A stretch of DNA of 32,000 nt from Candidatus Saccharimonadota bacterium (GTDB lineage Bacteria > Pseudomonadota > Alphaproteobacteria > CAJXXZ01 > 1604HC). The notes under the pieces were generated by a model. That model searched no databases. It was not told where the DNA came from and saw nothing but the letters and a program-made list of their open reading frames with translations. Location of the stretch: contig NZ_CP043316.1 of NCBI RefSeq assembly GCF_008189405.1, positions 360,001 through 392,000 of the forward strand, read 5' to 3'. Made by a program: the position numbers and the translations under genes. Positions 5,392 to 31,198 of this stretch are shown piece by piece (position 1 is the first letter of the stretch; each line of letters opens with the position of its first letter).

Positions 5392-5462
5392 TGGGGGATA
5401 GTTTAACGGCAGAACTCTTGACTCTGGATCAGGTAATCTTGGTTCGAATCCAGGTCTCCCAG
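5392..5462 (+). tRNA. tRNA-Gln (anticodon CTG)
   Basis: Cloverleaf: TGGGGGA TA GTTT AACGGCA GAAC T CTTGA CTCTGGA TCAGG TAAT CTTGG TTCGAAT CCAGG TCTCCCA G. The U1-A72 pair and G73 discriminator are typical of bacterial tRNA-Gln. Confidence 0.85.
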
Positions 5463-5549
5463 AATACATGAGATTAATCTATTGAGATTTCTATAAAATA
5501 ATGGAATAATCTCTAGTAAATTTGGCATATATTTTTATTAGGAGGTTAT

Positions 5550-6116
5550 ATGAACAGCTTTTCAGAAGATAATAACGTTAATAGCAGAAAGATGGGAAGT
5601 TGTTTTGAGCACGGTAATGATTCTAGCGATCAATCTGTTGTATATAGAACCTGTACAATCAAGTGGTTTAAAAACAAAAAGGGATATGGCTTTTTAATTT
5701 CGGATGATATATCTGAAGATATTTTTCTACACCATTCTAAAATTAAGGAAGCAGGAATCAATGTTGACCTAATACATGGTGATACTGTTGAATGCGATAT
5801 TATAATGGTAGGCCATATGCAAAAACCACATGTTGTAAAAGTTCATAATTGCTTACGGAAAAATGCAAATCTCAAAAATCTAGTCAAATCAAATGCTATT
5901 GTGAAATGGTTTAATGCTGTTGCAGATTATGGATTTCTTAATAATGGGCATGATGATATTTTTGTATCAGGTACTTTATTACGTAAATTTTATATTTCAG
6001 ATGAAAACTTCTGTGAGGGTGTAGAAGTAGAATGTTACTTCCTAGAAATAGAAAATAAAAAAATAGCATATCAAGTTACAATTCCAAATAAGGATGAAGA
6101 AGCGATTTACGCGTAA
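5550..6116 (+). CDS. Cold-shock-domain protein with two tandem CSDs
   Basis: CSD1 reads IKWFKNKKGYGFLISDD..DIFLHHS (RNP1 KGYGFL). CSD2 reads VKWFNAVADYGFLNNGHDDIFVS and has a degenerate RNP1. A GGAGG sits at 5541-5545 before the ATG. Confidence 0.8.
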   Translation: MNSFSEDNNVNSRKMGSCFEHGNDSSDQSVVYRTCTIKWFKNKKGYGFLISDDISEDIFLHHSKIKEAGINVDLIHGDTVECDIIMVGHMQKPHVVKVHNCLRKNANLKNLVKSNAIVKWFNAVADYGFLNNGHDDIFVSGTLLRKFYISDENFCEGVEVECYFLEIENKKIAYQVTIPNKDEEAIYA

Positions 6117-6213
6117 CTAAAACAACTAAAACAACTAAAACAACTAAAACAACTAAAACAACTAAAACAACTAAAACAACTAAAACAACTAAAACAACTA
6201 AAACAACTAAAAC
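6115..6213. repeat. Perfect tandem repeat, 11 x 9 bp (AACTAAAAC)
   Basis: Counted directly: units start every 9 nt from 6115 to 6205 with no mismatch. The first unit overlaps the TAA stop (6114-6116) of the CSD gene. Confidence 0.95.
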
Positions 6214-6449
6214 CATACATCAAATTTCACCAAAACATGTGTAAAAAATAGCATATCTTGTAAATATAATTCTAGCAGTACAAATTTACTAGAATAAGGT
6301 TTATTACAATGAACTATATAAAGCTATAGTTGTGTTCTGATAATCTAGACAATCCTAGTTATATAAATATGACTTTCAAAACAAATATTATTCATCAAAT
6401 AAACCTAAAAACGTTCATAGATCAAGCCTTGTTTACTCGCAATTTAGTA

Positions 6450-6477
6450 TTGACTTTTATTACTAATATTCTATATT
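6450..6477 (+). promoter_or_regulatory. Candidate sigma70-type promoter for tRNA-Leu
   Basis: TTGACT (6450-6455), a 16-nt spacer, then TATATT (6472-6477), ending 10 nt before the tRNA 5' end. The AT-rich background makes chance matches likely. Confidence 0.35.
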
Positions 6478-6487
6478 TGATTGTATT

Positions 6488-6570
6488 GCCTCTGTGGCGG
6501 AATGGTAGACGCGGCAGACTCAAAATCTGCTGTCCGTAAGGATGTGAGAGTTCGAATCTCTCTGGGGGTA
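6488..6570 (+). tRNA. tRNA-Leu (anticodon CAA), class II with a long variable arm
   Basis: The sequence GCCTCTG TG GCGGAATGGTAGACGCG GCAGA CTCAAAA TCTGC TGTCCGTAAGGATGT GAGAG TTCGAAT CTCTC TGGGGGT A closely parallels E. coli tRNA-Leu. The discriminator is A73. Confidence 0.85.
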
Positions 6571-6822
6571 TTGTTTATTTGAATTATTCAAGTAATTCAG
6601 GCATGCAAAAACTTATAAATTCTCATTTTATATTTTTATATGTTCTTATATTAAATAACTTTATATACATTATCATTGGCAAATGTAATTACCTGATCAT
6701 AGTGAAATAATAATCAATGAATAATAAATTTATTTATAGTCACATCAAATTATATGGGTTTAATAACTAATTTAATGGTTTATATAGATATTTCATATAA
6801 ATGATTTGTATTATTTAATAGC

Positions 6823-7263
6823 TTATATAAATGTTTTGATTTTTTCATAAATATTATTAGAGAAAACGTAGTTATAAGTGCTTTTTTTGAATCCAATGAT
6901 ATTTCTTTTTACCCATTCATCTGCTTCCCATTTATAATCTACAAATTCTTCATTTAGAGATACTTCATCAATATCATATACATTTGCATAAAACCATTTT
7001 TGCTTTTTCCCAGATTTACTTCTAAAAAACTTATTTTTACGTACTGAGTCTGGAAAGTTATATGAGTGCCAATTAGTTTCTCCTAACCATTCAACATTTA
7101 CTATCCCAGTTTCTTCTCTTAATTCTCGCACAGCAGCTTGAAATGGAGTTTCATTATATTCTATATCACCTTGAGGCATTTGCCATGTTCCTTGCTTAAA
7201 TCTCTTACCAACAAAAATCAGACCATTATGTATAGCTACTATACCAACATTTAAATCATACAC
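6823..7263 (-). CDS. rppH: RNA pyrophosphohydrolase / Nudix hydrolase (RppH, InvA-like)
   Basis: The Nudix box is present: WQMPQGDIEYNETPFQAAVRELREETGI. The N-terminal YDLNVGIV matches YRPNVG of RppH. The start codon appears to be GTG. Confidence 0.85.
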   Translation of the reverse strand: MYDLNVGIVAIHNGLIFVGKRFKQGTWQMPQGDIEYNETPFQAAVRELREETGIVNVEWLGETNWHSYNFPDSVRKNKFFRSKSGKKQKWFYANVYDIDEVSLNEEFVDYKWEADEWVKRNIIGFKKSTYNYVFSNNIYEKIKTFI

Positions 7264-7425
7264 ACCTAATTGTATTGCAATTTTGATTTATAGTGAATGA
7301 TTGCTCACTGACTACAAACTAATCATAGTTTAGTAAGTAACATACACTAATAACTAATTTATAAATATTTATTTATTCTGATTTCTTAATATTTTCATAT
7401 TATATAAATGCTCAAATAGCAAAAT

Positions 7426-7498
7426 TGCCAAAAAGGTGAATCGAACACCCAACCTCCTGATTACGAATCAAGCGCTCTACCTATTGAGCTATTTTGGC
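7426..7498 (-). tRNA. tRNA-Thr (anticodon CGT)
   Basis: Minus strand: GCCAAAA TA GCTC AATAGGTA GAGC G CTTGA TTCGTAA TCAGG AGGTT GGGTG TTCGATT CACCT TTTTGGC A. Confidence 0.9.
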
Positions 7499-7633
7499 TT
7501 AAAATCTTTTTACAATTTTTGGAAAAAACTATCAAGACATGTGTAAAGGCAATTTGATTTAATGGTGATTTTAACATAAATAATTTTTTTATGTAAGCGC
7601 TCTTTTTTATTAAGTATATGTTAAATTCTTCTC

Positions 7634-8806
7634 ATGACTTTTGCATTTTTATTAGGTGGATTTTTGATCTCAAAATTCTGGCAAGATACTTTAATGTTAT
7701 CAATTCCATCAATAGCAACATACATTGGTATGCCTGCAGCAATCATAAGGCAATCTGTAGTGTTTTCTGGGATTGGATTGACATTAGGAGCTATGATAGT
7801 AGGGCCAATTAATGATCGATTTGGACCAAAAAAAACCTTTCCCGTCTATTTGGTTTTAATTAGTATTTTGAATATTTTTTTAACATATAATCTAAGTGTT
7901 AATTTATTAAGGGTTGTTTTATTGCTAAGAAGTGTTTGTTTGGCCGGATCAATTAATAATACATATGTTGGAACATCTTTATTATATAAAGGAGATCAAT
8001 TACCTAGAATGACTTCAGTTCTATATATGGCTTTATTTGGTTTAAGTGCATTATTTCCTATTGCATTTTCATTAATTGTTAAAAACTACTCATTTCAAGT
8101 ATTATCCATTATAAGTTCGATAATTTGTTTAATAATTTCATATTATATTTTCGCGCATTTGCCAAACAAAGAGCCTATTCCTATTAACTTTCAAACATTT
8201 AAAAAATGGAAAAACTTTCTTAAAGATTTTAAATTTATAGCATGTTCTGCAGTTTCTATGATTTGTATTGGTGGCTTCTATGGGTTCATTGCTATATACG
8301 CTGCTCAATTCTCCAAATTGAATGGAAAATTAACAGTTAATGGAATGTTTAAATTTGCTATAACCTTAGCATTAATTCAAGGTATTGGTCGTTTTTGTAC
8401 ATTTATTACAGCAACTATGTGTTCTGTTAAATTAAATCTTGGGAATGTAGGAAAATACTTATCTTTAAGCATGCTAGGTATAGCGATTGGAATGTTTTGG
8501 ATGTTTATAAGCGGAATGGTTTTCGACAAATTAATACTATTCGGAATATTTGGATTTTTCCTAACTTGCCTAGCCTCAGGAATAGCACAACCAGCAACAA
8601 AATTAGCTCTTTTAACTATTTTTAAAGATTCTCCAGGTAGTGGTCAATCTCTTGTTGGAACTGGAAATAGCGTTTATGAAGTAATTGCAATATTATTTGT
8701 ATTTAACATTCCATACCAACCATTAGGTGGATACTTATACTTATTACTAACATCTGTTGTTACTTTCTATCTTTTCTTATATTTTAGGAAGATGGAGAAA
8801 ATATAG
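7634..8806 (+). CDS. MFS transporter (Bcr/CflA-like)
   Basis: The protein has about 12 hydrophobic segments and the loop 2-3 motif GPINDRFGPKK, which matches the MFS G-x-L-S-D-R-x-G-R-R/K motif. Confidence 0.75.
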   Translation: MTFAFLLGGFLISKFWQDTLMLSIPSIATYIGMPAAIIRQSVVFSGIGLTLGAMIVGPINDRFGPKKTFPVYLVLISILNIFLTYNLSVNLLRVVLLLRSVCLAGSINNTYVGTSLLYKGDQLPRMTSVLYMALFGLSALFPIAFSLIVKNYSFQVLSIISSIICLIISYYIFAHLPNKEPIPINFQTFKKWKNFLKDFKFIACSAVSMICIGGFYGFIAIYAAQFSKLNGKLTVNGMFKFAITLALIQGIGRFCTFITATMCSVKLNLGNVGKYLSLSMLGIAIGMFWMFISGMVFDKLILFGIFGFFLTCLASGIAQPATKLALLTIFKDSPGSGQSLVGTGNSVYEVIAILFVFNIPYQPLGGYLYLLLTSVVTFYLFLYFRKMEKI

Positions 8807-8808
8807 GC

Positions 8809-10005
8809 ATGAATACAAGTATTAATATCAACAATATAAAAGATAAAAATCATATTATAAACCTTAACCTTGATGAAATAGAAATCACTTCTAGACTAAA
8901 TTTATCCCAATACATTAAATCTCTATTTCCAAAAGGATCAAAAATTGTGGCAGCCATGTCCGGTGGTGTAGATAGCTCTGTGACAGCTGCATTAATGATC
9001 AAAGCTGGATATGACGTTGTTGGATTAACACTAAAATTACATGATAATCCGTCAACTAATCATAATATTAGAGATGCAAAAGCAATAGCAGATTTTCTAG
9101 GATTTGAACATAATGTTTTAGATCTTAGAAATGAATTTCAAGAACATGTTTTAGATAAATTCATGTCTGAATATGAAGAAGGTAAAACACCAAATCCATG
9201 TATGAGATGTAATAGAAATATCAAATTCAGCGGAATGGTAGAATATACAAAATCTATAGGTGCACAGGGGTTAGTAACTGGTCATTATGTAAAAAGAGTA
9301 ATAAAAGATGATAAACATCGAATTATGATGGCAAGGGATTTTAATAAAGATCAAAGTTACTTCTTATCTATGATTTCCAAGGATCATTTACCATACATTG
9401 GATTTCCACTAGGAATTATGACTAAGCCTATTGCACGAAGAATCGCTGAATTCTGGAATTTATTTGTAGCTAAAAAAGCTGAGAGTCAGGACTTGTGCTT
9501 TGCTGTAAGTAATAAATATTACGATGTATTAAAAAATATGGGAACACAAGATGAAAGTGGAGATATTGTAGATTTAGATGGGAAAAAGCTTGGAAAGCAT
9601 AATGGAGTTTCTAAGTTTACAATTGGCCAACGTAAAGGTTTAAGCTTAGCAGGTGGTCCATGGTTTGTGAATAAAATAGATAAACAAAGCAATACAGTAA
9701 TCGTTGGAAGCCTAAAAGATTTAGAATGTTATGAAGTGTATTTTGAACAACTAAACTTATTAGGTGATTTTGATTTGCATAATATGAGTGATCTAAAAAC
9801 CAAAGTCAGAGGGACTCATAGGCCTGTGCCCTGCTCTGTAGAAGTATTTGATAATGGAACTGGAATTATACATTTAAAGAACCCTGAATATGGAGTTGCA
9901 ACTGGTCAATTTTGTGGATTCTACCATAATGAGATTCTATTAGGTGGTGGCTATATTGTTGACAAGGATCTTGTATTGAAAAAACAAACAAATAAAAACG
10001 TATGA
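8809..10005 (+). CDS. mnmA: tRNA-specific 2-thiouridylase MnmA
   Basis: The PP-loop AAMSGGVDSSV is present, along with NPCMRCN, DQSYFL and GQRKGL. Confidence 0.92.
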   Translation: MNTSININNIKDKNHIINLNLDEIEITSRLNLSQYIKSLFPKGSKIVAAMSGGVDSSVTAALMIKAGYDVVGLTLKLHDNPSTNHNIRDAKAIADFLGFEHNVLDLRNEFQEHVLDKFMSEYEEGKTPNPCMRCNRNIKFSGMVEYTKSIGAQGLVTGHYVKRVIKDDKHRIMMARDFNKDQSYFLSMISKDHLPYIGFPLGIMTKPIARRIAEFWNLFVAKKAESQDLCFAVSNKYYDVLKNMGTQDESGDIVDLDGKKLGKHNGVSKFTIGQRKGLSLAGGPWFVNKIDKQSNTVIVGSLKDLECYEVYFEQLNLLGDFDLHNMSDLKTKVRGTHRPVPCSVEVFDNGTGIIHLKNPEYGVATGQFCGFYHNEILLGGGYIVDKDLVLKKQTNKNV

Positions 10006-10102
10006 TTTTTAGCTTTCATAATTACCAGCATTTTCAGAACTATATTATAATTAGCTATGTAATATATAGTTATATAAAAATATTACACATAAGGCATACA
10101 AT

Positions 10103-10561
10103 ATGATTATTGGAATTGGTATAGATTTAGTCAATTATAATAGAATAGAAATCTTATTTAATAAATATGGAGAAAAATTAGCAGCAAAAATTCTTAGTGA
10201 TTGGGAAATCCTAAAGTTCAATGATAAACATATCGCAAACCATAATGATAAATCAAATATTAAAAATGAAGCATCAAATCTATTTTATAAAAATAAATTA
10301 ATAAATTTAATTGCAAAAAAATTAGCAGTAACAGAAGCAATAAGTAAGGCAAGTTCCACTGGAATAGGAAAATATTGTAGATTTCATGATTTGCATTTAT
10401 ATAATGAAATATCAGGAAAACCACAAATAAATGTTACAGGCCAAACAAATCAATATTTAAGTAAAAATAATAAATACAGAATCCACATCAGCTTTAGTGA
10501 TGAAATCATTGATGCTCATAAAATAGTAATATGTAATGTTATACTGTGTAATGTTGAATGA
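10103..10561 (+). CDS. acpS: Holo-[acyl-carrier-protein] synthase
   Basis: The N-terminus MIIGIGIDLV is present, followed by the LAVTEAISKA motif (FA.KEA..KA). There is an N/K-rich internal insertion. Confidence 0.8.
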   Translation: MIIGIGIDLVNYNRIEILFNKYGEKLAAKILSDWEILKFNDKHIANHNDKSNIKNEASNLFYKNKLINLIAKKLAVTEAISKASSTGIGKYCRFHDLHLYNEISGKPQINVTGQTNQYLSKNNKYRIHISFSDEIIDAHKIVICNVILCNVE

Positions 10562-10749
10562 AGCAAACAAATCAATTAGTACAAATCAGTAAGATTGAGA
10601 TGACTGGACTAATTCAATCAAAATAGTCAAATTAAGTAAAAATTACATGCAAAATAAATTATACATAATAACTATATAGTATGATTACAGTCAATGCATA
10701 TTCACCACTTATTGCATTTATATGCTAATATATGTTATAAATTGGCTAA

Positions 10750-11964
10750 ATGTCTAGTAAAAAAATAGGATTTATATCTCTTACATCAATTATAATTGGA
10801 AATATTATGGGAAGTGGAGTACTTCTATTACCAAAAACAATTGGTAAATTTGGAATTATTTCATTATGGTCTTATGCAATTAGTGCAGTAGGATTTCTTG
10901 CAATAGGACTATTATATGCACAAATGCAAATGTGGTTAAAATGTGAAGGTGTACATGGACCTATTTTAAAAGTTTTTGGGAATAAATATGGTAAAGCTGC
11001 AGCATTTTTATATTGGCTATCTGTAGTCACAGGAAATAGTGCATTATTTACTAGCTTGTTTTCATATATAGGGTTTGGAAAAATATCTTTATTAACATGT
11101 TTATCACTAACATCAATAATCTTGTTTTTTGCAACTTTATTTAATTGTATTGATTTAAGAGCTGTAAAAATAGTTGAATTATTTGTCGCAGCTGTAAAAA
11201 TGATACCATTAATTGGTCTACCTTTATTGTGTATTTATTATGCTTGGAAATCCAATGTAGATATATATAAAATATATGAAACCACTACATTCACTTCTGG
11301 TATTCAGCAAACTTTAACACATACATTATGGGCATTTTTAGGTGTAGAGACTGCAGTGGCAATAGGAAGTAAAATTCATAATCCAGAAAAAACAATAGCA
11401 AGGTCAATGATAGTTGGAATGTCAACAATTGCTATAGCATATATATTAGGAATGTGGGCAATTTTGAAAATATTACCTAATGTAAGCGAAATAAATGCAC
11501 CGTATACAGAGCTTCTTATGTTTATAGTGCCTCAATCAATTAGAAGTTTCGCATCTCCCCTTATCTATGGATTAGCAATATTTTTGATTTTAGGATCTGT
11601 ATATAGCTGGATTTTCACAACTGGTGTTATTGCATCTGATTCAGCTGAACAAGGACTGTTTCCTAAATTTTTAGCATATAAAAATAGGTTTGGGGCTCCA
11701 TCAAATGCATTAATAGTTTCTTCACTATTTTCATTATTGTTTCTTATTGCAACTTATAGAGATGATTTATCTACACATTTTGATATTATGATTAATTTTC
11801 TTACATTGATTACATTTTTTGTACACTTTGCTACAAACATCGCATTCTTTAAATTTATCTTCTCTCAATCTAAACTGACAATATATAATTTATTCATAGG
11901 AACCACAGCTATAATAGCTAATATTATAGCAATTTCCATAATAATTATGCAAATTTTAACATAA
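10750..11964 (+). CDS. APC-superfamily amino acid/polyamine antiporter (ArcD/PotE-like)
   Basis: The N-terminal LTSIIIGNIMGSGVLLLP and the later FGNKYGKAAAFLYWLSVVTGNSA match the APA-family pattern. The protein is polytopic. Confidence 0.75.
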   Translation: MSSKKIGFISLTSIIIGNIMGSGVLLLPKTIGKFGIISLWSYAISAVGFLAIGLLYAQMQMWLKCEGVHGPILKVFGNKYGKAAAFLYWLSVVTGNSALFTSLFSYIGFGKISLLTCLSLTSIILFFATLFNCIDLRAVKIVELFVAAVKMIPLIGLPLLCIYYAWKSNVDIYKIYETTTFTSGIQQTLTHTLWAFLGVETAVAIGSKIHNPEKTIARSMIVGMSTIAIAYILGMWAILKILPNVSEINAPYTELLMFIVPQSIRSFASPLIYGLAIFLILGSVYSWIFTTGVIASDSAEQGLFPKFLAYKNRFGAPSNALIVSSLFSLLFLIATYRDDLSTHFDIMINFLTLITFFVHFATNIAFFKFIFSQSKLTIYNLFIGTTAIIANIIAISIIIMQILT

Positions 11965-12122
11965 ATCACATCAATAATTCATGTTAAATCACATCTAAAC
12001 AATACAATATCAAATCATTATAAATCATACAATTATTTATATGAACCTAACCATTTTAACCTTTTATTCACATCTTATTTATAATCTTTAAATATACAAA
12101 CAATTTTTTGGAGGTAAAGTAT

Positions 12123-13115
12123 ATGTCAAAGTATTTAGCTTTATTACTATTAGGAGCAAAATTATATGCATTAGATGGCATAGTATTTGATGACACTGAA
12201 ACAGATGCAACTTCTGTTACTGGTATTGGTATAGAAAGATCACCATCAGGCTATATCATTAAAGAAAATAAAGATGCAATATCTGTTCATGGAGTTGATT
12301 CAGCAGCACCAACTGAATCATATGCACCTGAAGATGCAGATGCTTTATTGCGTACTTTTAATGACCAAGATCATATACAAACAATAGAACTAACAGAACA
12401 AGACTTAGTACAAGAAACTGCTAGAAGAATGAGTGTTAATAATGGACAATCTCAATCAAATATATCAGAGCTCAGCTTAAATCAAAACACTGCAATGAGC
12501 ATAGAAGAAACTGCATATATTACAAAAAATGCACATGATATCGTAAAAAATACAGGCTCATACACTAAGGAACAGGTAACTGCAGCTAGATTGCACTTAT
12601 CTTTAGTAAGCGAAGCAGCACATGGTGCAACTCCTGAAAAGCAAAAAAGCACATCAATCCAGTTAAGCCAAACACCAAAACACCAAAGCATATCAAAGCC
12701 ACAATATGATACACCACAACAAGTATCTTCAGTACAAAAGACTCCAGAGACTGCTATAAAAAAATCAGCATCTGTAGGAAGTGTCGGAAGCATTGTAATA
12801 GATCAAAATGGAATAGATATAGGCGGATTGGTCAAATATAATAGTGAGCATGGATTTAGTGTGGATACACCTCAATCACCTATTCCTACAGGAGTCAAAT
12901 TAGATGCAAATGGAACTCTAACACTTACACATGAAAGCCCTGCAAATAATGGACAAAATCAAAAGAATAATCAAGGTATTAACCTTAATGAATCTATTAA
13001 ATCAATTCAATCCCTTTTGCAATCCCCAACACATAAAAACCCAAAACCTATTGCTAAAAACAACCAAAGACCTGCTAAAGGTGGTGGTTGTGGATGTAGC
13101 TGTACTATTAGCTAA
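12123..13115 (+). CDS. Orphan secreted, low-complexity (S/T/Q/P-rich) protein with a C-terminal polybasic + Cys-rich + CaaX-like tail
   Basis: A GGAGG at 12110-12114 precedes the ATG at 12123. The N-terminus MSKYLALLLLGAKLYA|LDG looks like a Sec signal peptide. I recognise no enzymatic motifs. The protein ends ..KNPKPIAKNNQRPAKGGGCGCSCTIS*. Confidence 0.7.
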   Translation: MSKYLALLLLGAKLYALDGIVFDDTETDATSVTGIGIERSPSGYIIKENKDAISVHGVDSAAPTESYAPEDADALLRTFNDQDHIQTIELTEQDLVQETARRMSVNNGQSQSNISELSLNQNTAMSIEETAYITKNAHDIVKNTGSYTKEQVTAARLHLSLVSEAAHGATPEKQKSTSIQLSQTPKHQSISKPQYDTPQQVSSVQKTPETAIKKSASVGSVGSIVIDQNGIDIGGLVKYNSEHGFSVDTPQSPIPTGVKLDANGTLTLTHESPANNGQNQKNNQGINLNESIKSIQSLLQSPTHKNPKPIAKNNQRPAKGGGCGCSCTIS

Positions 13116-13739
13116 TTATATAAACTATTTTCTACTATATAAATTGTATAATCATAACACACAAAACTATGAGAATTAATCTCACTATTATAAAAATCAT
13201 AAACTATGCTTATAGCTATCAACGTATTTTAATCTATACTAGATCATTATGGATATAAAATTTATTACTATAAATATATTGAAGATTAATCATATATGAT
13301 GCTTATTATACATAGGTTTACATAAATTCATATATATATAAATCAGAACGAAATATCATCATAAATTCATATAAACTCATAATAATAAGGTTCATAACTC
13401 TATTCTTACTTAATTCATTTTAATATATCAAAGTTATTTATTCTCTAACTTACTATATAACCCAATGTGATTTAGTGATTCAAACTTATTTGCTAATATT
13501 ATATTTGATTAAGCGTTCTGATCAATCAATATACTGTCTATTCAATAGCAATATTTATAATTTATAAAGCGTATTTAAGGATAATAAATTTGTATATTTT
13601 CTGATTACATTAAAATTATAGTATAATCTACATCTTTAATGCTATAAGAATAACAAAAAGCAATGCTTTCATGTAAACAATTTAATAAGAAAAACAAAAT
13701 TAATTGCAAAATATTTATGGAATAATAATATATTTCTGA

Positions 13740-14360
13740 TCACATAGATCTAGAATACATCTCGATAACCATTGGCATATCCATAATAGCAGGATATTTG
13801 ATTTCTTCAATGTTATCAGGCAGTTTAACCAAAGAACCAGACAAACCATCTTGCGCTACATCCATGTAAGCAGGAACATCTCTTTCTTTTAATTCTATAG
13901 AATGTTTAATCACACCCATATTTTTAGATTTATCTCTAAGTTCAATTTTATCGCCAGGAGATACTAAGTAAGAAGCAACATCAACTCTTGCTCCATTAAT
14001 CAATATGTGACCATGGTTAACTAATTGCTTAGCTCCAAAAATAGTAGCAGACCATTTCAAACGATAAATACATGTATCTAATCTTCTTTCAAGCATTTGA
14101 ATCAAATTAGTTCCTGTATCACCTCTTTTATTCATAGAAATCTTAAAGAACCTTCTAAATTGTCCTTCTTTCATTCCATAATAATATCTAAACTTTTGTT
14201 TAGCGATTAATTGCAATGCATAGTTAGATAATTTTTTCCTTCTTCTACTTCCATGTTGGCCTGGTCTACTTTGTCTTTTGTTGAAAGGACTCTTATCCCT
14301 ACCCCAAAGATTAACACCACATGCTCTATCAATCTTATATTTACTTCTGATTAAATGCAT
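13740..14360 (-). CDS. rpsD: 30S ribosomal protein S4
   Basis: The N-terminus contains KYKIDRACGVNLWGR...RPGQHG, and the S4 domain LERRLDTCIYRL is present. A GGAGGT sits immediately upstream of the ATG. Confidence 0.95.
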   Translation of the reverse strand: MHLIRSKYKIDRACGVNLWGRDKSPFNKRQSRPGQHGSRRRKKLSNYALQLIAKQKFRYYYGMKEGQFRRFFKISMNKRGDTGTNLIQMLERRLDTCIYRLKWSATIFGAKQLVNHGHILINGARVDVASYLVSPGDKIELRDKSKNMGVIKHSIELKERDVPAYMDVAQDGLSGSLVKLPDNIEEIKYPAIMDMPMVIEMYSRSM

Positions 14361-14403
14361 ATGACCTCCAATATACCACGCAATATCTTCACATTCATTA
14401 ACA

Positions 14404-16788
14404 CTATGATAGCTTTTTATAATCTTTTGTCAATTCTAAACCTAAATTAATTTCTTGTGATGCAATATTACTTTCTTTAGCATAAGCTTTGAAAATAATA
14501 TCAGACAATTTATTCTTAACTGTATATATATATAATTGTTCTTTAGATCTTGTGATAGCAACATAAAGCAATCGATCATACTCATATTCTGATATATGCT
14601 TTCTTTTTTTCAAAGCATTTTGATATTTTATACTTTGTTTATGTGGGAAGATAACTTTTCCACTATCATATAACACATCTTGAATATTATCATATTTGCT
14701 ATCATCAAAAATAATTACTATCGGAGATTCTAGCCCTTTAGATGAATGTACAGTTTTAATTCGTATTCCATTATTATGATGGTTTACCATTTTTTTTGAT
14801 TTCCTTACATAATCAAAAAATTCTAACCATGACTCTTCACCAAAATCATTCACTATTTCCCAGAAGGCCAATATAGAATTATATCCAAGTTTCATTAAAT
14901 ATTTACCATAATTATCATTAAAAACAATCTGTGAAAAGAAAGGAATAATATTCTTAGGATAAGAAACCCATCGCTTAATATATTTATTTAATTCTATAAC
15001 TTTTGCTAGAAACTCATCTGACATATCACTATAATTTCCAAGATTTATACAATAATCTTCATTTAAGTTAAATATATTTTCCTGCTCACAAAATAACATT
15101 TCTAAATCCTCATAACTCCATTTAAAATATCCATTTTTTAATATAGCTATTAATGCAGTAGAATCTTTAAATAGCGCAAACTTAGCAATATTTATCAAGC
15201 TTTCGACTATGCAATCATACATAATGTAAAAAGGATGCTCATTGATTGGAATTCCAGCGTTTTGTATTTCAGACAACAGGCGAAATGTAGAGTTGTTTCT
15301 TTTTTTGATTAAAATTAAAATATCTTTGAACTCAACATACTTACCTTGCTCAAATAAATAATATTCATTGACTAAATCACGTATTTTCTTAATCATATCG
15401 GTGAATATTTTACTATCTACTCTATTATCATCAAACAATTTGCATTGCACTTTACCTCTAAAATTCACATTTGAAATGTGTTTAGTAGGGTAATTTGTAT
15501 ATGACATCACTGTATCTACAAAGTGTAAAATGTCATCTGAAGATCTATAAGATGCATGTAATTTCTTCACTTCAAACTGCAAACCATATGTTTTGGCATA
15601 ATTTTGTAAATTTCTTTTCATTTTTGTAAATAATGGCCCGTCAAACGTATTTGATGAGTAAATACTTTGCTTCTCATCTCCAACAATATATAGCGTACAT
15701 TTATTACTAGATTGTATTTCTTTATATAAATTAAGAACAACATCCCATTGCCCCTGAGATAAATCTTGTGCCTCATCTACAAAAATATATTTAATCGGTA
15801 TGATCTTTTGTAAAACATTATAATCTGCAAAGTTAACGTTCTTAATTAAATCATTAAAATCTACTAGTTTGTTTTTATCTTTTTCTGCTCTATACAACAA
15901 TTTGATATGATTGATAAACTGCCCTATAGAATTTGATTTAAGATTTACTTGATACTCGTTATATTCATCAGATTTTTCTTTAATTTGAATAAAATAGTTA
16001 TCTAACCATTCTCTGGATTGTATATGATTCATGCCCCATTTCTTAGAGTATAATTTTTTACGTAACTCACCATCTTTAGTCATAATAATATTAAAAACAT
16101 GCTCAGGCGTTATATTCTGCTTAGATACCCTATCATATGAATTTACCCCACTATTATGTGCATCTAACCTATTATATTTATCTGCTATGTTACTACTACT
16201 ATCATTACTGTTTTCTGATGTTCCATGATCATTTATATCGCTATAGCTATCATCATTAGTATTATTATCATTACTACCTTCTATGCTATTAATACTATTG
16301 GCATTTAGAAGCTTTAGCTCTAAATTCCCTCCTTTGTTCAAATCACATATTACAGAATCAGGAAATTCAATTGGATTCCATACAAAATCACATAAATCAT
16401 TCAATGTAACAATGTTATCTTGCTTAACAATCATAATAATATGACTTAATAGAGAAGCCCACTCATCTAATAACAAATAAATCAAATCAAACCATGCTTG
16501 CTCTTGCAACACATCATTGATAATTCTTTTAATTAAGTTTTCTGATTCTATTTCATTAATCAGTTGTGAATCATCATAAAAAGTATTACAAAAACTATGC
16601 ACAGTATAAAACCTTATCTTATCTGAATATGCCCTTAATCTATCTTTCATTTCATTTGCTGCAGCATTACTAAAACTCAAACATAATATTGATTCTCCAT
16701 GTACTTTTTTCAATATAAGTTTTTTAATTTCTTGAACTAAATTATAAGTTTTCCCTGAACCAGCTGATGCATCAACCCATGTAATCAT
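14404..16788 (-). CDS. addA: UvrD/AddA-like superfamily-1 helicase without a C-terminal RecB-type nuclease domain
   Basis: The helicase motifs are present: I DASAGSGKT, Ia CLSFSNAAANEM, II FVDEAQDLS, III VGDEKQSIY, then TVHSSKGLE and VI LLYVAITRSKEQLYIY. The protein ends about 35 aa after motif VI. The gene overlaps the upstream partner by 17 nt, as in alphaproteobacterial addB-addA. Confidence 0.7.
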   Translation of the reverse strand: MITWVDASAGSGKTYNLVQEIKKLILKKVHGESILCLSFSNAAANEMKDRLRAYSDKIRFYTVHSFCNTFYDDSQLINEIESENLIKRIINDVLQEQAWFDLIYLLLDEWASLLSHIIMIVKQDNIVTLNDLCDFVWNPIEFPDSVICDLNKGGNLELKLLNANSINSIEGSNDNNTNDDSYSDINDHGTSENSNDSSSNIADKYNRLDAHNSGVNSYDRVSKQNITPEHVFNIIMTKDGELRKKLYSKKWGMNHIQSREWLDNYFIQIKEKSDEYNEYQVNLKSNSIGQFINHIKLLYRAEKDKNKLVDFNDLIKNVNFADYNVLQKIIPIKYIFVDEAQDLSQGQWDVVLNLYKEIQSSNKCTLYIVGDEKQSIYSSNTFDGPLFTKMKRNLQNYAKTYGLQFEVKKLHASYRSSDDILHFVDTVMSYTNYPTKHISNVNFRGKVQCKLFDDNRVDSKIFTDMIKKIRDLVNEYYLFEQGKYVEFKDILILIKKRNNSTFRLLSEIQNAGIPINEHPFYIMYDCIVESLINIAKFALFKDSTALIAILKNGYFKWSYEDLEMLFCEQENIFNLNEDYCINLGNYSDMSDEFLAKVIELNKYIKRWVSYPKNIIPFFSQIVFNDNYGKYLMKLGYNSILAFWEIVNDFGEESWLEFFDYVRKSKKMVNHHNNGIRIKTVHSSKGLESPIVIIFDDSKYDNIQDVLYDSGKVIFPHKQSIKYQNALKKRKHISEYEYDRLLYVAITRSKEQLYIYTVKNKLSDIIFKAYAKESNIASQEINLGLELTKDYKKLS

Positions 16789-18736
16789 AATACCTCACTA
16801 AATTAATCAGTTTATAATTCATGTTAATGTTTTTAAATCCAAAATCATAATTGTAATATATTGGCAATTTGATTTGCTTCTCAATAATAAAATACAAATC
16901 ACTAAAATTAATTTCAGACAAAAGCACTGTAAAGATTTCGTTCACTGTAACAAAACATAATTTAATATCCCACAAATTATACTTAAATAGCAAATTAGAT
17001 GCAGTTAAAACAATTATATTAATATATAGATTCCTCATTAATAGAATGTCTTTCTGATTTATAGTTGTAAAATACATAAATTTAAATAAGATGCCACTTT
17101 TATTCTGCAATATATAAAAACAATCATAATGCGAATTTATAATAACTGCATTAGCAATATTCAAATTTATTTCCTCATAAATATTAAACATTTTCTTTGT
17201 TATACTATTTTTGACTATATTATGAAAATCCACTATGCTCTGCACTTTATGAATCAAAGCATATGATTTTATTTTTATTTTCATAGCATCTAAAGCAGCA
17301 AAATTACTATTATATAAATATTTTTCTACTTCATTTATATTAAATTCAACAAAATAATTACATAAAATCACTTTTACATGATATGTAATATAATCATCTA
17401 TTTCATAATTGATTGATTTTAATCCTAATATACATTTTACATAGAATATTAAAATATCATCTTTAATATCACGTAGTTTAATAGAAAATATTTTCTTTGG
17501 AATCAAATGTTGTTTTATTTTTAAATCATTAAACTTAAACTGTAATTTCAAAGCACTTTGAGCACAATTATTCTGCACTGTATTTATCGTGATATTTTTT
17601 AATGCCTCAGCATGAATATGAGAAGAAGCATTACATGATATATTTATATTTATATAATTTTCATTAAAGCAAAACAAATCCAAATTATGATTCACAGGAT
17701 TACATATATATAAATTATCTGCAAACAAATATGGAATGGCATTAATAGGAACAATATGATTTTGTAGTTTACACTGCATATTCATATTAAGAGTCATAAT
17801 ATCTTCTAGAAATTTGATATAATCTTTTCTGTTTGTTTTTTCAATCAGATTATATGTATCATTTGTATATTGATCATTTATTTGTATTTTATTTCGAATT
17901 AATTCATCAATACTTTCAATATAATTATTTAGCACTTCAATATTAAATTGTTTGATGAGTTTTATATTGTTATTCCAAATACTTAACAAATCACTTACTT
18001 CAATAACCAATTGCCCAATATAACTTTTATCTATTTGATATATATTCATCAATTCTTTATTCTCATATTCTTTATTTATATTAAGCAATAATTTAGTACA
18101 TTGTAAAAACACAAACCTTTCATATTTATAAGCTTTATCATCAAATACACGTAAATCTGGATTCATACTTAGCAAAGTATTTTTCATAATTTGACTATCA
18201 GTCGCAATAAAATAATGTGTGGTTTTTTGAGTTAACAATTCATTTTTATCTTGAATTGATATGTTATTTCTACTATTTATTGATGGTTTATCATGCCTTT
18301 TAATAGATTCAATAACATATTTAGCTTCCTCTATCACATCTGTGAATTCTAAGCATACACCATTAATTTTTCGTTTTTTTAATATATATATACCATATAA
18401 ATGTATACTATCGGAATGTATAGCATCATATAAATCCATACTTATTTTTCCTTCAATTTCAGCTAAATCATCTGATTGTAATATTAATTTATTAGTACTT
18501 ATTGTTTTATTAGCACTTGTTATAAATGAATCAGCGCTCATATTATTCGTTGATGAATTTTGATTAATCACTAAAGAGCTTAAATTAAATGATCCTGAAT
18601 TAATTGAGTTGATTATTTCATCCAAGCTTGTATATGTAAATTCTATTTTTGGAAAACTATTTTTCAACCAAAATATCCAAGAACTGTCAGATACTACAAC
18701 TTTTTTAGTTTCTTGTAAAAAGAGGTGTAAATTCAT
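16772..18736 (-). CDS. Hypothetical protein, possibly a highly degenerate AddB-like partner of the downstream helicase
   Basis: The 654-aa ORF is N/I/K-rich and is translationally coupled to the helicase gene in the addB-then-addA order. I can recognise no Walker A motif, no intact PD-(D/E)XK motif and no terminal Cys cluster. Confidence 0.45.
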   Translation of the reverse strand: MNLHLFLQETKKVVVSDSSWIFWLKNSFPKIEFTYTSLDEIINSINSGSFNLSSLVINQNSSTNNMSADSFITSANKTISTNKLILQSDDLAEIEGKISMDLYDAIHSDSIHLYGIYILKKRKINGVCLEFTDVIEEAKYVIESIKRHDKPSINSRNNISIQDKNELLTQKTTHYFIATDSQIMKNTLLSMNPDLRVFDDKAYKYERFVFLQCTKLLLNINKEYENKELMNIYQIDKSYIGQLVIEVSDLLSIWNNNIKLIKQFNIEVLNNYIESIDELIRNKIQINDQYTNDTYNLIEKTNRKDYIKFLEDIMTLNMNMQCKLQNHIVPINAIPYLFADNLYICNPVNHNLDLFCFNENYININISCNASSHIHAEALKNITINTVQNNCAQSALKLQFKFNDLKIKQHLIPKKIFSIKLRDIKDDILIFYVKCILGLKSINYEIDDYITYHVKVILCNYFVEFNINEVEKYLYNSNFAALDAMKIKIKSYALIHKVQSIVDFHNIVKNSITKKMFNIYEEINLNIANAVIINSHYDCFYILQNKSGILFKFMYFTTINQKDILLMRNLYINIIVLTASNLLFKYNLWDIKLCFVTVNEIFTVLLSEINFSDLYFIIEKQIKLPIYYNYDFGFKNINMNYKLINLVRYYDYMG

Positions 18737-28954: not shown

Positions 28955-31198
28955 ATGTTAAGAAAACTTATAATTATGTTACTTATGGCAAATAAGTCAT
29001 ACGCTATGGAAAACGAAGAGATGGATATGATGGATGAAACACATCAATCTATTGATGATGCATACAGTGAACATACTGTATATTCTGAACCTTTAACTGT
29101 ATCAAAATTAGCTCAATTAGACCCTAAAAGCAAACCAAGCACATCAGAACTTCATTTTGATATTGAAACCATTGGAACTATGAGTGTATGCACTGATGAT
29201 AGCATGAGTACAAGTAGCAGTTATAGTGAATTTGGAACAAAGCAAAATGATTATAAGAAAAAACTAAGTCATAAACTAAAAAAAGAGTATGCGCGCAGAT
29301 CAAATGATTTATTATCAAAAATAAAAGCAGATTCAAGCAAAGCATTAAAGGATAATATGATGAAGATTCTGTCTAATACTGCCAATGATGAAACATATTA
29401 TCGTAGTCAAATAAAAGAAGATAGAGCTGATGATTTTGCTCATATTACTTATATGCAAAAAGCAGAACTGGAACTGTTACGCAAAATGGAAAATAATCTT
29501 AAATCTCAATTAGGAGATGGTATAGATTCTTCTCACCTTAGCGCAATAATCAAGCAACTAGAAACTGAGAAATATAAATCAATACAGGCAGAATGTGAGT
29601 TAGGCGAAAAATTAGAGCAACTAAAACTTGATCTTGCGAATGAAAAAAACGCACATAGTAAAGCAAAAGAGCAATTGAATGATGCAAAACAAAAAATAGA
29701 AGCAATCAATGAAAAAGACAATGCAATTGCTGAGCAAAATGCTACAATTGAAAAATTAAAACTTGAGTTGCAAGACAAGCAAAATGAATTTAATGATCAG
29801 ATTGCAAAATTACAAAATGAAGTTACAAATTTAAAAGTAAATAAAGTAAATGACAATGATAAAACAGATCAATCTGAACTAGGCGAAACTAATGAATGTA
29901 TTGATAAACTAGAGACTGATAAAAATCTAGAGAGCCAACCTAATACAGAGGAATGTGAAAAGATTGCAAAACTATATGAACATTTAGGTAATTCTAAGAG
30001 AGCTGCTCAACTATATCAAAAAGCTGCAGAAGAACACCAAAAATATGAAAGCGAGCATTACATTGAAAAACCTCCATTCAAATCTGCTCAATTATATGAG
30101 AAAGCTTTTCAATTATATAAGAGTATAGGAATGTATGATGAATATACAAAAATGTATAAAAAAGCTGTGGAACTATATGAAAAAGCAAAGCAACATGAAA
30201 AAGTTGCAGAGCTATATTTATACAATTCTCAATATGAAAAGGCTGCAGAACAATACATAAAAGCAGGGCAATCAGAAAAAGCTGCAAAGCAATATGAGAA
30301 TGCACATAAATGTACAGAAGCTGCAGAGCAATATATAGAAGCAAAGCAACCTTTGAAAGCTGCAGAGTTATATATAAAAGCAAATCGATATGAAAAAGCT
30401 GCAGAGCAATATATAGAAGCAAAGCAATATGGAAATACTGCAGATTTATATAAAAAAGCTGCAGATTTATATATAAAAGCAAAGCAATATGAAAAGGCTG
30501 CATTGTTTTATGAAAAAGCCGCGGAACAATATATCAAACTTGCACAAGAATATACAAAAATCATACAGTATGAAGAAGGAAATGGAGGACAAAACGCAAC
30601 AGATGCTACATATTATTATAGTTGCACCGCAAGTAACTATGAATACTCTGCACAGCAATATGCACATTCTGCACAACAATATACAAATGCACATCAATAT
30701 GAAAAAGCTGCTAAACAGTATGAAAAAGCTGCAGAGCAATATGAATGTTATTCGAATGTATATGAAAAAATAGACCTACAACATATTGCTAGTGGTTATT
30801 ATAGTAGTAGTGGCTTTAGTGTTGAAAGTTTGAATTATTTTCGAGCACAGGAAGCAGATTCAAATAGAAAGAATAAAAGTGAAGCATTACAGCGCGTACA
30901 TGCAAAACAACAATACGCATACGCTGCAAAGCAATATGCAAATATTGCAAAACAGTATGAAAAAACTGCAGAGCAATATATAAGTGTGCATAAATATACA
31001 AAAGCTGCTGAAGAATATGAAAAAGCTGCAGATATTTATAAAGATACTGCACAACGATATAAAATGAATGATATATATGTCAAAGCTGTAAAACAGTATA
31101 GCAATGCAATGGAACAATATAAAAATTCAGGAGAATATGAAAAAGCTGAGAATATGCGAGAGAAAGCCAGTGAAATGGAGAAATTAGCTAAATCATAA
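28955..31198 (+). CDS. Orphan secreted repeat protein with a signal peptide, an acidic region, a coiled coil and a long array of ~13-residue 'AAEQYIxAKQYEK' (AAxxY) helical repeats
   Basis: An AAAGGA lies upstream of the ATG. The N-terminus is MLRKLIIMLLMANKSYA|ME. Residues ~150-300 are heptad-rich (LEQLKLDLANEKNAHSKAKEQLNDAKQKIEAINEK..). Residues ~340-745 carry dozens of (K)AA(E/K)(Q/L)Y units spaced 6, 7 or 13 residues apart. Confidence 0.8.
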   Translation: MLRKLIIMLLMANKSYAMENEEMDMMDETHQSIDDAYSEHTVYSEPLTVSKLAQLDPKSKPSTSELHFDIETIGTMSVCTDDSMSTSSSYSEFGTKQNDYKKKLSHKLKKEYARRSNDLLSKIKADSSKALKDNMMKILSNTANDETYYRSQIKEDRADDFAHITYMQKAELELLRKMENNLKSQLGDGIDSSHLSAIIKQLETEKYKSIQAECELGEKLEQLKLDLANEKNAHSKAKEQLNDAKQKIEAINEKDNAIAEQNATIEKLKLELQDKQNEFNDQIAKLQNEVTNLKVNKVNDNDKTDQSELGETNECIDKLETDKNLESQPNTEECEKIAKLYEHLGNSKRAAQLYQKAAEEHQKYESEHYIEKPPFKSAQLYEKAFQLYKSIGMYDEYTKMYKKAVELYEKAKQHEKVAELYLYNSQYEKAAEQYIKAGQSEKAAKQYENAHKCTEAAEQYIEAKQPLKAAELYIKANRYEKAAEQYIEAKQYGNTADLYKKAADLYIKAKQYEKAALFYEKAAEQYIKLAQEYTKIIQYEEGNGGQNATDATYYYSCTASNYEYSAQQYAHSAQQYTNAHQYEKAAKQYEKAAEQYECYSNVYEKIDLQHIASGYYSSSGFSVESLNYFRAQEADSNRKNKSEALQRVHAKQQYAYAAKQYANIAKQYEKTAEQYISVHKYTKAAEEYEKAADIYKDTAQRYKMNDIYVKAVKQYSNAMEQYKNSGEYEKAENMREKASEMEKLAKS
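30150..31180 (+). repeat. Intragenic degenerate tandem repeats with a 39-nt (13-codon) period
   Basis: An exact 30-nt copy, gctgcagagcaatatatagaagcaaagcaa, occurs at 30320-30349 and at 30398-30427. The two copies are 78 nt apart, which equals two 13-codon units. Many diverged copies surround them. Confidence 0.85.

Follow-up and report, generated by a model that had tools for sequence, protein, structure and literature searches.

Description

The 32,000-nucleotide stretch of DNA analysed here (the window; NZ_CP043316.1, positions 360,001 to 392,000, forward strand) comes from Candidatus Cytomitobacter primus, a Holosporales bacterium that lives as an endosymbiont in the diplonemid Diplonema japonicum. 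Here, we describe a gene in this window (12123-13115, + strand; ATG at 12123, TAA at 13113-13115) that encodes a genus-restricted hypothetical protein of 330 amino acids ending in the tetrapeptide C-T-I-S. A sequence-only reading of the same DNA had taken this ending for a eukaryotic CaaX prenylation box, and the protein for a candidate host-lipidated effector of an apparently host-dependent alphaproteobacterium; the description of the organism was apt. We favour, with a probability of about 0.55, a Cytomitobacter-specific, fast-evolving, Sec-exported protein of the envelope or host interface, with a cationic, cysteine-bearing tail in which the CaaX of C. primus is probably incidental.

For comparison, the syntenic sequence of Ca. 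C. indipagum (L001) was found by anchoring on the neighbouring permease gene, and holds a positional orthologue of 275 amino acids (L001:11469-12296, FZC35_01805) directly downstream of the same amino-acid permease. A promoter-like site upstream of the C. primus gene (TTAACC, an 18-nt spacer and TATAAT; 12056-12085, + strand) matches 10 of 12 consensus positions; such sites show no enrichment over shuffles in this AT-rich region, and the -10 element TTTATAAT aligns identically in the two species. A Shine-Dalgarno sequence, GGAGG (12110-12114, + strand), lies 8 nt 5' of the ATG, and GGAGG is also present in L001. Both species keep long open reading frames (330 codons in C. primus and 275 in C. 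indipagum) in DNA of about 30% G+C (about 28-30% for the window), where a random frame is expected, by an estimate from the window's base composition, to meet a stop about every 12 codons.

The protein begins with a putative Sec signal peptide, MSKYLALLLLGAKLYA (12123-12170, + strand), probably cleaved after YA, in which 13 of 16 residues match MSKYLALFLLGAKIYG of the orthologue by our own count. On inspection, this N-terminus (MSK-YLALLLLGA-KLYA/LDG) shows a lysine in the n-region, a hydrophobic core of nine residues and a small residue at -1, and so resembles a Sec signal as the sequence-only reading had said, and the orthologue keeps the resemblance. The hydropathy peak does not extend beyond residues 1-16, and no second hydrophobic segment follows. 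A conserved N-terminal segment of the mature protein follows (residues 17-47; 12171-12263, + strand), with a (G/A)IGIE motif at 12222-12236, and leads into an acidic low-complexity body rich in S, T, Q, P and N (12264-13034, + strand) for which no similarity was detected, either to the orthologue or to any other sequence. The mature protein (residues 17-330) is 40% S+T+Q+P+N, in line with the composition first noticed by eye, with a net charge of -9, while residues 1-300 (all but the last 30) carry -12. A single-sequence AlphaFold2 model (predicted local distance difference test 35, predicted template modelling score 0.16; mostly coil and helix) is uninformative, and is compatible with disorder or with orphan status.

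The C-terminus reads ...KGGGCGCSCTIS up to the stop (in longer form ...THKNPKPIAKNNQRPAKGGGCGCSCTIS), and is laid out from S301 as PTHKNPKPIAKNNQRPAK, GGG, C323, G, C325, S, C327, T, I and S330. It comprises a basic patch rich in K, N and P from K305 to K319 (KNPKPIAKNNQRPAK; 13035-13079, + strand), a glycine-flanked cysteine cluster, GGGCGCSC (C323, C325 and C327, the sole cysteines of the protein; 13080-13103, + strand), and the CaaX-type ending C-T-I-S with its TAA stop (13101-13115, + strand). The last four codons, tgt act att agc (13101-13112), were confirmed from the open reading frame, the TGT of C327 lying at 13101-13103, as were the two further cysteines, C323 and C325, at -4 and -2 relative to C327, and the Lys/Arg/Pro-rich stretch upstream. 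The sequence-only reading had started this tail at 13041; the tail is real, but 13041 is P307, and the string that it quoted begins two codons earlier at K305 (13035). The last 30 residues hold five K/R and no D/E, and the region just upstream of the CTIS box is, by inspection, glycine-rich and hydrophilic. No read-through extension of the C. primus open reading frame that would reveal a hidden CaaX was found.

Relatives and conservation

In a word-indexed search the sole database match was a 100%-identical 'hypothetical protein' of C. primus; two assemblies encode the identical protein, which rules out a sequencing artefact in the tail. Pfam and NCBIfam returned nothing meaningful (the only hit, dipeptidase PepV, scored 17 bits against a cutoff of 435), a sequence search of the PDB gave no match, and phmmer, run exhaustively against 1.84 billion representatives, recovered only the query itself, in agreement with the earlier description of an orphan without a recognised motif. 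Word-indexed, phmmer and two-orthologue profile searches found no homologue in Nesciobacter abundans or other Holosporales, the profile built from both orthologues drew in no third family member, and a metagenome scan with the conserved N-terminal peptides gave 77 pattern matches and no relatives. To judge from these searches the family appears restricted to two members, both in Cytomitobacter.

Between the two species the neighbouring permease is about 71.5-73% identical and AcpS (holo-ACP synthase) 42%. The first 47 residues of the two orthologues share 47% identity (E = 2e-7), with the N-terminal consensus MSKYLAL(L/F)LLGAK(L/I)Y(A/G), and the signal-peptide segment is the best-conserved part of the gene. 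Within the coding sequence, conservation at the DNA level is confined to the first 46 nt (87% identity). Codon by codon, the signal peptides (window 12123-12170 against L001 11469-11516) are about 87% identical, most synonymous sites included, which is unusually strong for a signal peptide and may reflect a constraint on translation initiation or export. Beyond residue 47 identity falls to 13%, and local alignment scores lie within those of shuffles.

The C. indipagum orthologue ends in ...GSFGCCGGTKKNPNKRK (GCCGGTKKNPNKRK; ...KVSGSFGCCGGTKKNPNKRK), with cysteines at -12 and -11, and has no CaaX in any frame, so that a CaaX hidden by a frameshift is excluded. The sequence-only reading had looked to orthologues for a cysteine exactly four residues from the stop, and had held that C-termini lacking it would count against prenylation; the only orthologue lacks the CaaX, and on those terms speaks against it. 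What the two proteins do share is a build. The C. indipagum protein has eight K/R and one D/E in its last 30 residues, and its mature part has a net charge of -5 and 34% S/T/Q/P/N; both orthologues thus combine an acidic body with a basic tail and carry a glycine-flanked cysteine cluster in the last 12 residues. Only 2 of the 22 proteins of the window pair an acidic body with a tail that is strongly basic. This pattern, noticed post hoc on two sequences, suggests that the retained feature would be a basic thiol-bearing tail rather than CaaX spacing. Homology of the C-termini was considered from a MAFFT pairing of ASVGSVGS with GSFGCCGG and a shared KNP tripeptide, and was rejected, since local scores were no better than those of shuffles. 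Cysteine counts are three (odd) in C. primus and eight (even) in C. indipagum, including two CX4C pairs.

Motif frequency and comparison systems

Chance expectations were computed from the cysteine frequency in the window (1.29% of 8,585 residues in 22 genes, the window being about 5% of the genome). At this frequency a genome of 550 proteins should hold about 0.5 copies of a strict box, C-x-[VILMFT]-[SMQAC] (probability of at least one about 0.4), and the 169 hypothetical proteins of C. primus about 0.16, bearing out the caveat first given with the motif, that four residues can arise by chance. A cysteine at -4 alone is expected about seven times per genome. The CaaX box alone is not above chance level. 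The window itself contains a second protein with a cysteine at -4, the product of acpS (10103-10561, + strand; ending ...ICNVILCNVE), a cytoplasmic housekeeping enzyme that gives a control, within the window, for the base rate of CaaX; AcpS of C. indipagum ends ...NAIIESA. For at least three cysteines in the last eight residues the probability is about 1e-4 in any one protein, and about 0.06 over the genome. The codons follow a TGTGGA-TGTAGC-TGTACT pattern, so the three cysteines may not be independent events; Tandem Repeats Finder called no tandem repeat at the cluster, and the loose TGTNNN x3 is visible by eye only.

The sequence-only reading had assigned the ending to the farnesyltransferase class, and CTIS is indeed the farnesylated box of a human protein: human GBP1 ends ...MRRRKA-CTIS, and its CTIS directs farnesylation (PMC2903825, PMC2998424). 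A GFP-Gly4-CTIS fusion goes to the Golgi in a manner sensitive to a farnesyltransferase inhibitor, and with an added polybasic stretch goes to the plasma membrane (PMC2903825, PMC2998424). GBP1 shares with the C. primus protein the same tetrapeptide and a basic stretch before it, but is a eukaryotic GTPase of the cytosol that lacks a signal peptide and extra cysteines. The likeness to H-Ras (GCMSCKCVLS) that had been drawn holds for a CaaX with X = Ser and for two upstream cysteines, one of them at -2. In H-Ras the palmitoylated cysteines are at -2 and -5, and a polybasic patch is a feature of K-Ras4B, not H-Ras; the likeness fails for the second cysteine (-5 in H-Ras, -4 here) and for the patch, which H-Ras lacks. 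Compared residue by residue, GBP1 is thus the better comparator for the tail. Membership of the Ras superfamily was rejected, there being no P-loop GTPase domain among Pfam, NCBIfam or PDB matches.

Legionella AnkB and PelA-like proteins and Salmonella SifA and GtgE likewise carry a C-terminal CaaX on proteins of intracellular bacteria, and SifA also has acylated cysteines adjoining its CaaX. Unlike the C. primus protein, they are substrates of type III or type IV secretion systems (T3SS, T4SS), have no Sec signal, and were shown experimentally to be lipidated; to our knowledge, all CaaX effectors described so far travel by a T3SS or T4SS and carry no Sec signal. A further comparison is with lineage-specific signal-peptide orphans of reduced endosymbionts, which are also domain-free, fast-evolving and assumed to have a symbiont-host role; the present protein differs from other such orphans in its unusually well-conserved signal peptide and N-terminal segment and in its Cys-rich basic tail.

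Interpretation

C. primus has been reported to keep secABDEFY, ffh, gspD, gspF, pilB, pilQ and a modified type VI secretion system, with no type I system, T3SS or T4SS among the systems reported. Its reported counts are 60 signal-peptide proteins (from the supplement of George et al., which gives counts without a per-gene list), 169 hypothetical proteins and 7 pseudogenes. In the favoured reading of an exported envelope or host-interface protein, cleavage of the signal peptide would leave the protein in the periplasm, on the cell surface, or released via the GspD/PilQ secretins or vesicles. It would then sit at the symbiont-host interface, a position that would explain its rapid divergence. 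The cationic thiol-bearing tail could be a general-purpose module for attachment to anionic surfaces or membranes, and CTIS in C. primus would be a species-specific result of where the stop codon falls after the cysteine cluster, not a conserved functional element. This reading is supported by the conservation of the -10 box, the Shine-Dalgarno sequence, the signal peptide of 16 residues and the 30 or so residues that follow it, with the remaining 280 or so at random level, by the long open reading frames and build kept in both species, by the retention of Sec and secretins, and by a CaaX that is absent in the orthologue and expected by chance.

Other envelope classes are disfavoured, since the protein lacks a lipobox, a second hydrophobic segment and a C-terminal aromatic residue. 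A lipoprotein was rejected for want of a lipobox ([LVI][ASTVI][GAS]C), with no cysteine before residue 323; an outer-membrane beta-barrel was rejected for a protein that ends in Ser without a C-terminal aromatic, its model being mostly coil and helix at low confidence; and a prepilin reading of the termini was rejected by inspection.

Several points weigh against the favoured reading. The signal peptide, its cleavage and the localisation are putative, being read from the N-terminus by inspection. C. primus lies free in the host cytoplasm, without an enclosing host membrane and exposed to the host cytosol, so a protein that passed the outer membrane would meet host cytosolic enzymes. By analogy with GBP1, CTIS would be a biochemically competent farnesyltransferase substrate, at least in mammals, where it is proven, and a glycine linker and basic patch before CTIS are what prenylation predictors look for. 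The cluster of three cysteines is improbable by chance. Comparison with a lone orthologue whose tail does not align makes the absence of CaaX there weak negative evidence, and a natural orthologue of Legionella AnkB has lost its CaaX and uses another anchor (PMC5506055).

The hypothesis of the sequence-only reading is that the protein reaches the Diplonema cytosol, through Sec and then a secretin or vesicles, is farnesylated on C327, and is anchored to a host membrane such as that of the mitochondrion, with C323 and C325 possibly palmitoylated and the basic patch helping the anchoring. It can draw on the identity of CTIS with the GBP1 box, with its inhibitor-sensitive GFP targeting and polybasic shift to the plasma membrane, on the glycine linker and a tail of five K/R with no D/E, on extra cysteines like those of the H-Ras and SifA tails, on a symbiont that is free in the cytoplasm and associated with the mitochondrion (Cytomitobacter symbionts show a graded association with it), on the retention of Sec and GspD/PilQ, and on CaaX effectors being an established paradigm. 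The two-step export that it requires is topologically possible, with Sec and the secretins kept and no host membrane in the way, but the route itself is hypothetical, and passage through the periplasm could oxidise the thiols. Against it also stand the orthologue without CaaX, the 0.5 boxes or so expected per genome, a housekeeping acpS product that also has a cysteine at -4, the want of a Sec signal in any CaaX effector that we know of, and the gene context, for the window genes near the target include no secretion-system or effector cluster and the neighbours are housekeeping genes. Diplonemids are the sister group of kinetoplastids, and farnesyltransferase is present in Euglenozoa. The farnesyltransferase of Trypanosoma brucei, the nearest characterised to that of the host, modifies boxes with Ser, Thr, Ala or Cys at X only poorly (PMC3206815), which weighs, indirectly, against farnesylation in Diplonema. 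We consider host farnesylation very unlikely. The sequence-only reading was thus sound on the orphan status, the host dependence, the Sec-like N-terminus and the competence of CTIS, but its interpretation is not borne out by conservation, motif frequency, the T. brucei enzyme or gene context.

Three further explanations do not depend on the CaaX. The one to which we give most room, though we still think it unlikely, keeps the protein in the symbiont envelope, where the C-terminal cysteines would be thiols for intermolecular disulfides with envelope proteins or for binding a metal (CxCxC, CC) with no host modification. A Sec signal without any further targeting signal agrees with this, as do the even number of cysteines in C. 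indipagum (eight), the two CX4C pairs among them, typical of disulfide loops in exported proteins, and a CxCxC that recalls metallothionein-like metal sites; the odd number of cysteines in C. primus, without CX4C pairs, and the want of domain or structural support do not. Somewhat less likely still is a release of both orthologues into the host, where they would be anchored to host membranes by the basic patch and host S-acylation (of GCGCSC in C. primus and GCCGG in C. indipagum); the conserved principle of the tail would then be a polybasic patch with palmitoylated cysteines, the CaaX being an optional add-on in C. primus. Host S-palmitoylation of bacterial effectors is known for Salmonella SspH2/SseI and for Legionella GobX and LpdA, and a basic tail with a cysteine cluster in the last 12 residues is shared here despite no sequence similarity, in proteins of a charge layout seen in only 2 of 22 window proteins; at least two cysteines in the last 15 residues have a probability of 0.016 at the genomic cysteine frequency. 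However, that pattern was noticed after the fact in two sequences, homology of the tails could not be demonstrated, and delivery to the host cytosol is hypothetical; in C. indipagum, moreover, six cysteines lie elsewhere in the protein, which makes its pair less of a surprise (P = 0.07). Very unlikely, finally, is that the gene is a remnant, decaying or without function, in a reduced genome, and that its tail does nothing. Extreme divergence, a position adjoining a rearrangement breakpoint and the want of any domain would fit decay, but both species keep long open frames in AT-rich DNA, the -10 box, Shine-Dalgarno sequence and signal peptide are conserved, and only 7 pseudogenes are reported for C. 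primus.

Export by Sec and a secretin into the host cytosol followed by host farnesylation and/or palmitoylation, pinning the protein and perhaps the bacterium to host membranes such as that of the mitochondrion, is a long shot. If true, this would be a first for host-lipidated effectors, both in Holosporales and in a euglenozoan host, and the first such case to rely on Sec. It would also extend the CaaX-effector paradigm to protist symbioses and Sec-dependent export, and would give a testable handle on the means by which Cytomitobacter becomes attached to the Diplonema mitochondrion and gains entry to it. Lipidation, if shown, would place the protein in a known class of host-lipidated effectors, unusual in its export route and host. 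The main lesson is that small AT-rich genomes produce, at the rate expected by chance, four-residue eukaryotic motifs that look perfect, and that reading such a motif as mimicry requires evidence of conservation or enrichment.

Other features of the window

Upstream neighbours of the gene are alaS and genes for a cold-shock protein, a NUDIX protein and a major facilitator superfamily transporter, followed by mnmA, acpS and the amino-acid permease; downstream lie rpsD, addA-like and addB-like genes, an H+-pyrophosphatase gene, mraZ, rsmH, ftsI and murE. Window 5392-11853 is collinear with L001 4713-11104, whereas window 13614-17494 (rpsD, addA/B) maps inverted to L001 4557-870, which places a breakpoint just 3' of the gene; in Ca. 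C. indipagum the rpsD-addA/B block lies on the other side of the block running from tRNA-Gln to the permease. A non-coding stretch (13116-13613, strand not assigned) adjoins the gene on its 3' side and holds this synteny breakpoint, and in it no Rfam family, terminator-like site or structured RNA was found. The breakpoint region is non-coding in both species (window 13116-13739, 0.6 kb, with no Rfam hit; L001 12297-13481, 1.2 kb). Remodelling of the 3' end of the gene may owe something to the breakpoint, which does not account for a divergence that runs through the whole body. Downstream of the C. indipagum orthologue, L001 12833-12979 is a perfect non-coding 9-bp tandem repeat (AATCCATAA x 16.3) that is absent from C. 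primus.

Two other proteins of the window were noted. A 654-amino-acid open reading frame (16772-18736, - strand) has no Pfam match; it shares 17 nt with the 3' end of the UvrD/AddA-like helicase gene, and is probably a highly diverged AddB-like partner. A 747-amino-acid protein (28955-31198, + strand) has a signal-peptide-like N-terminus (MLRKLIIMLLMANKSYA/MEN) and TPR repeats that also match the eukaryotic soluble NSF attachment protein (SNAP) family PF14938 (38.9 bits against a cutoff of 25), and may be an exported eukaryote-like repeat protein.

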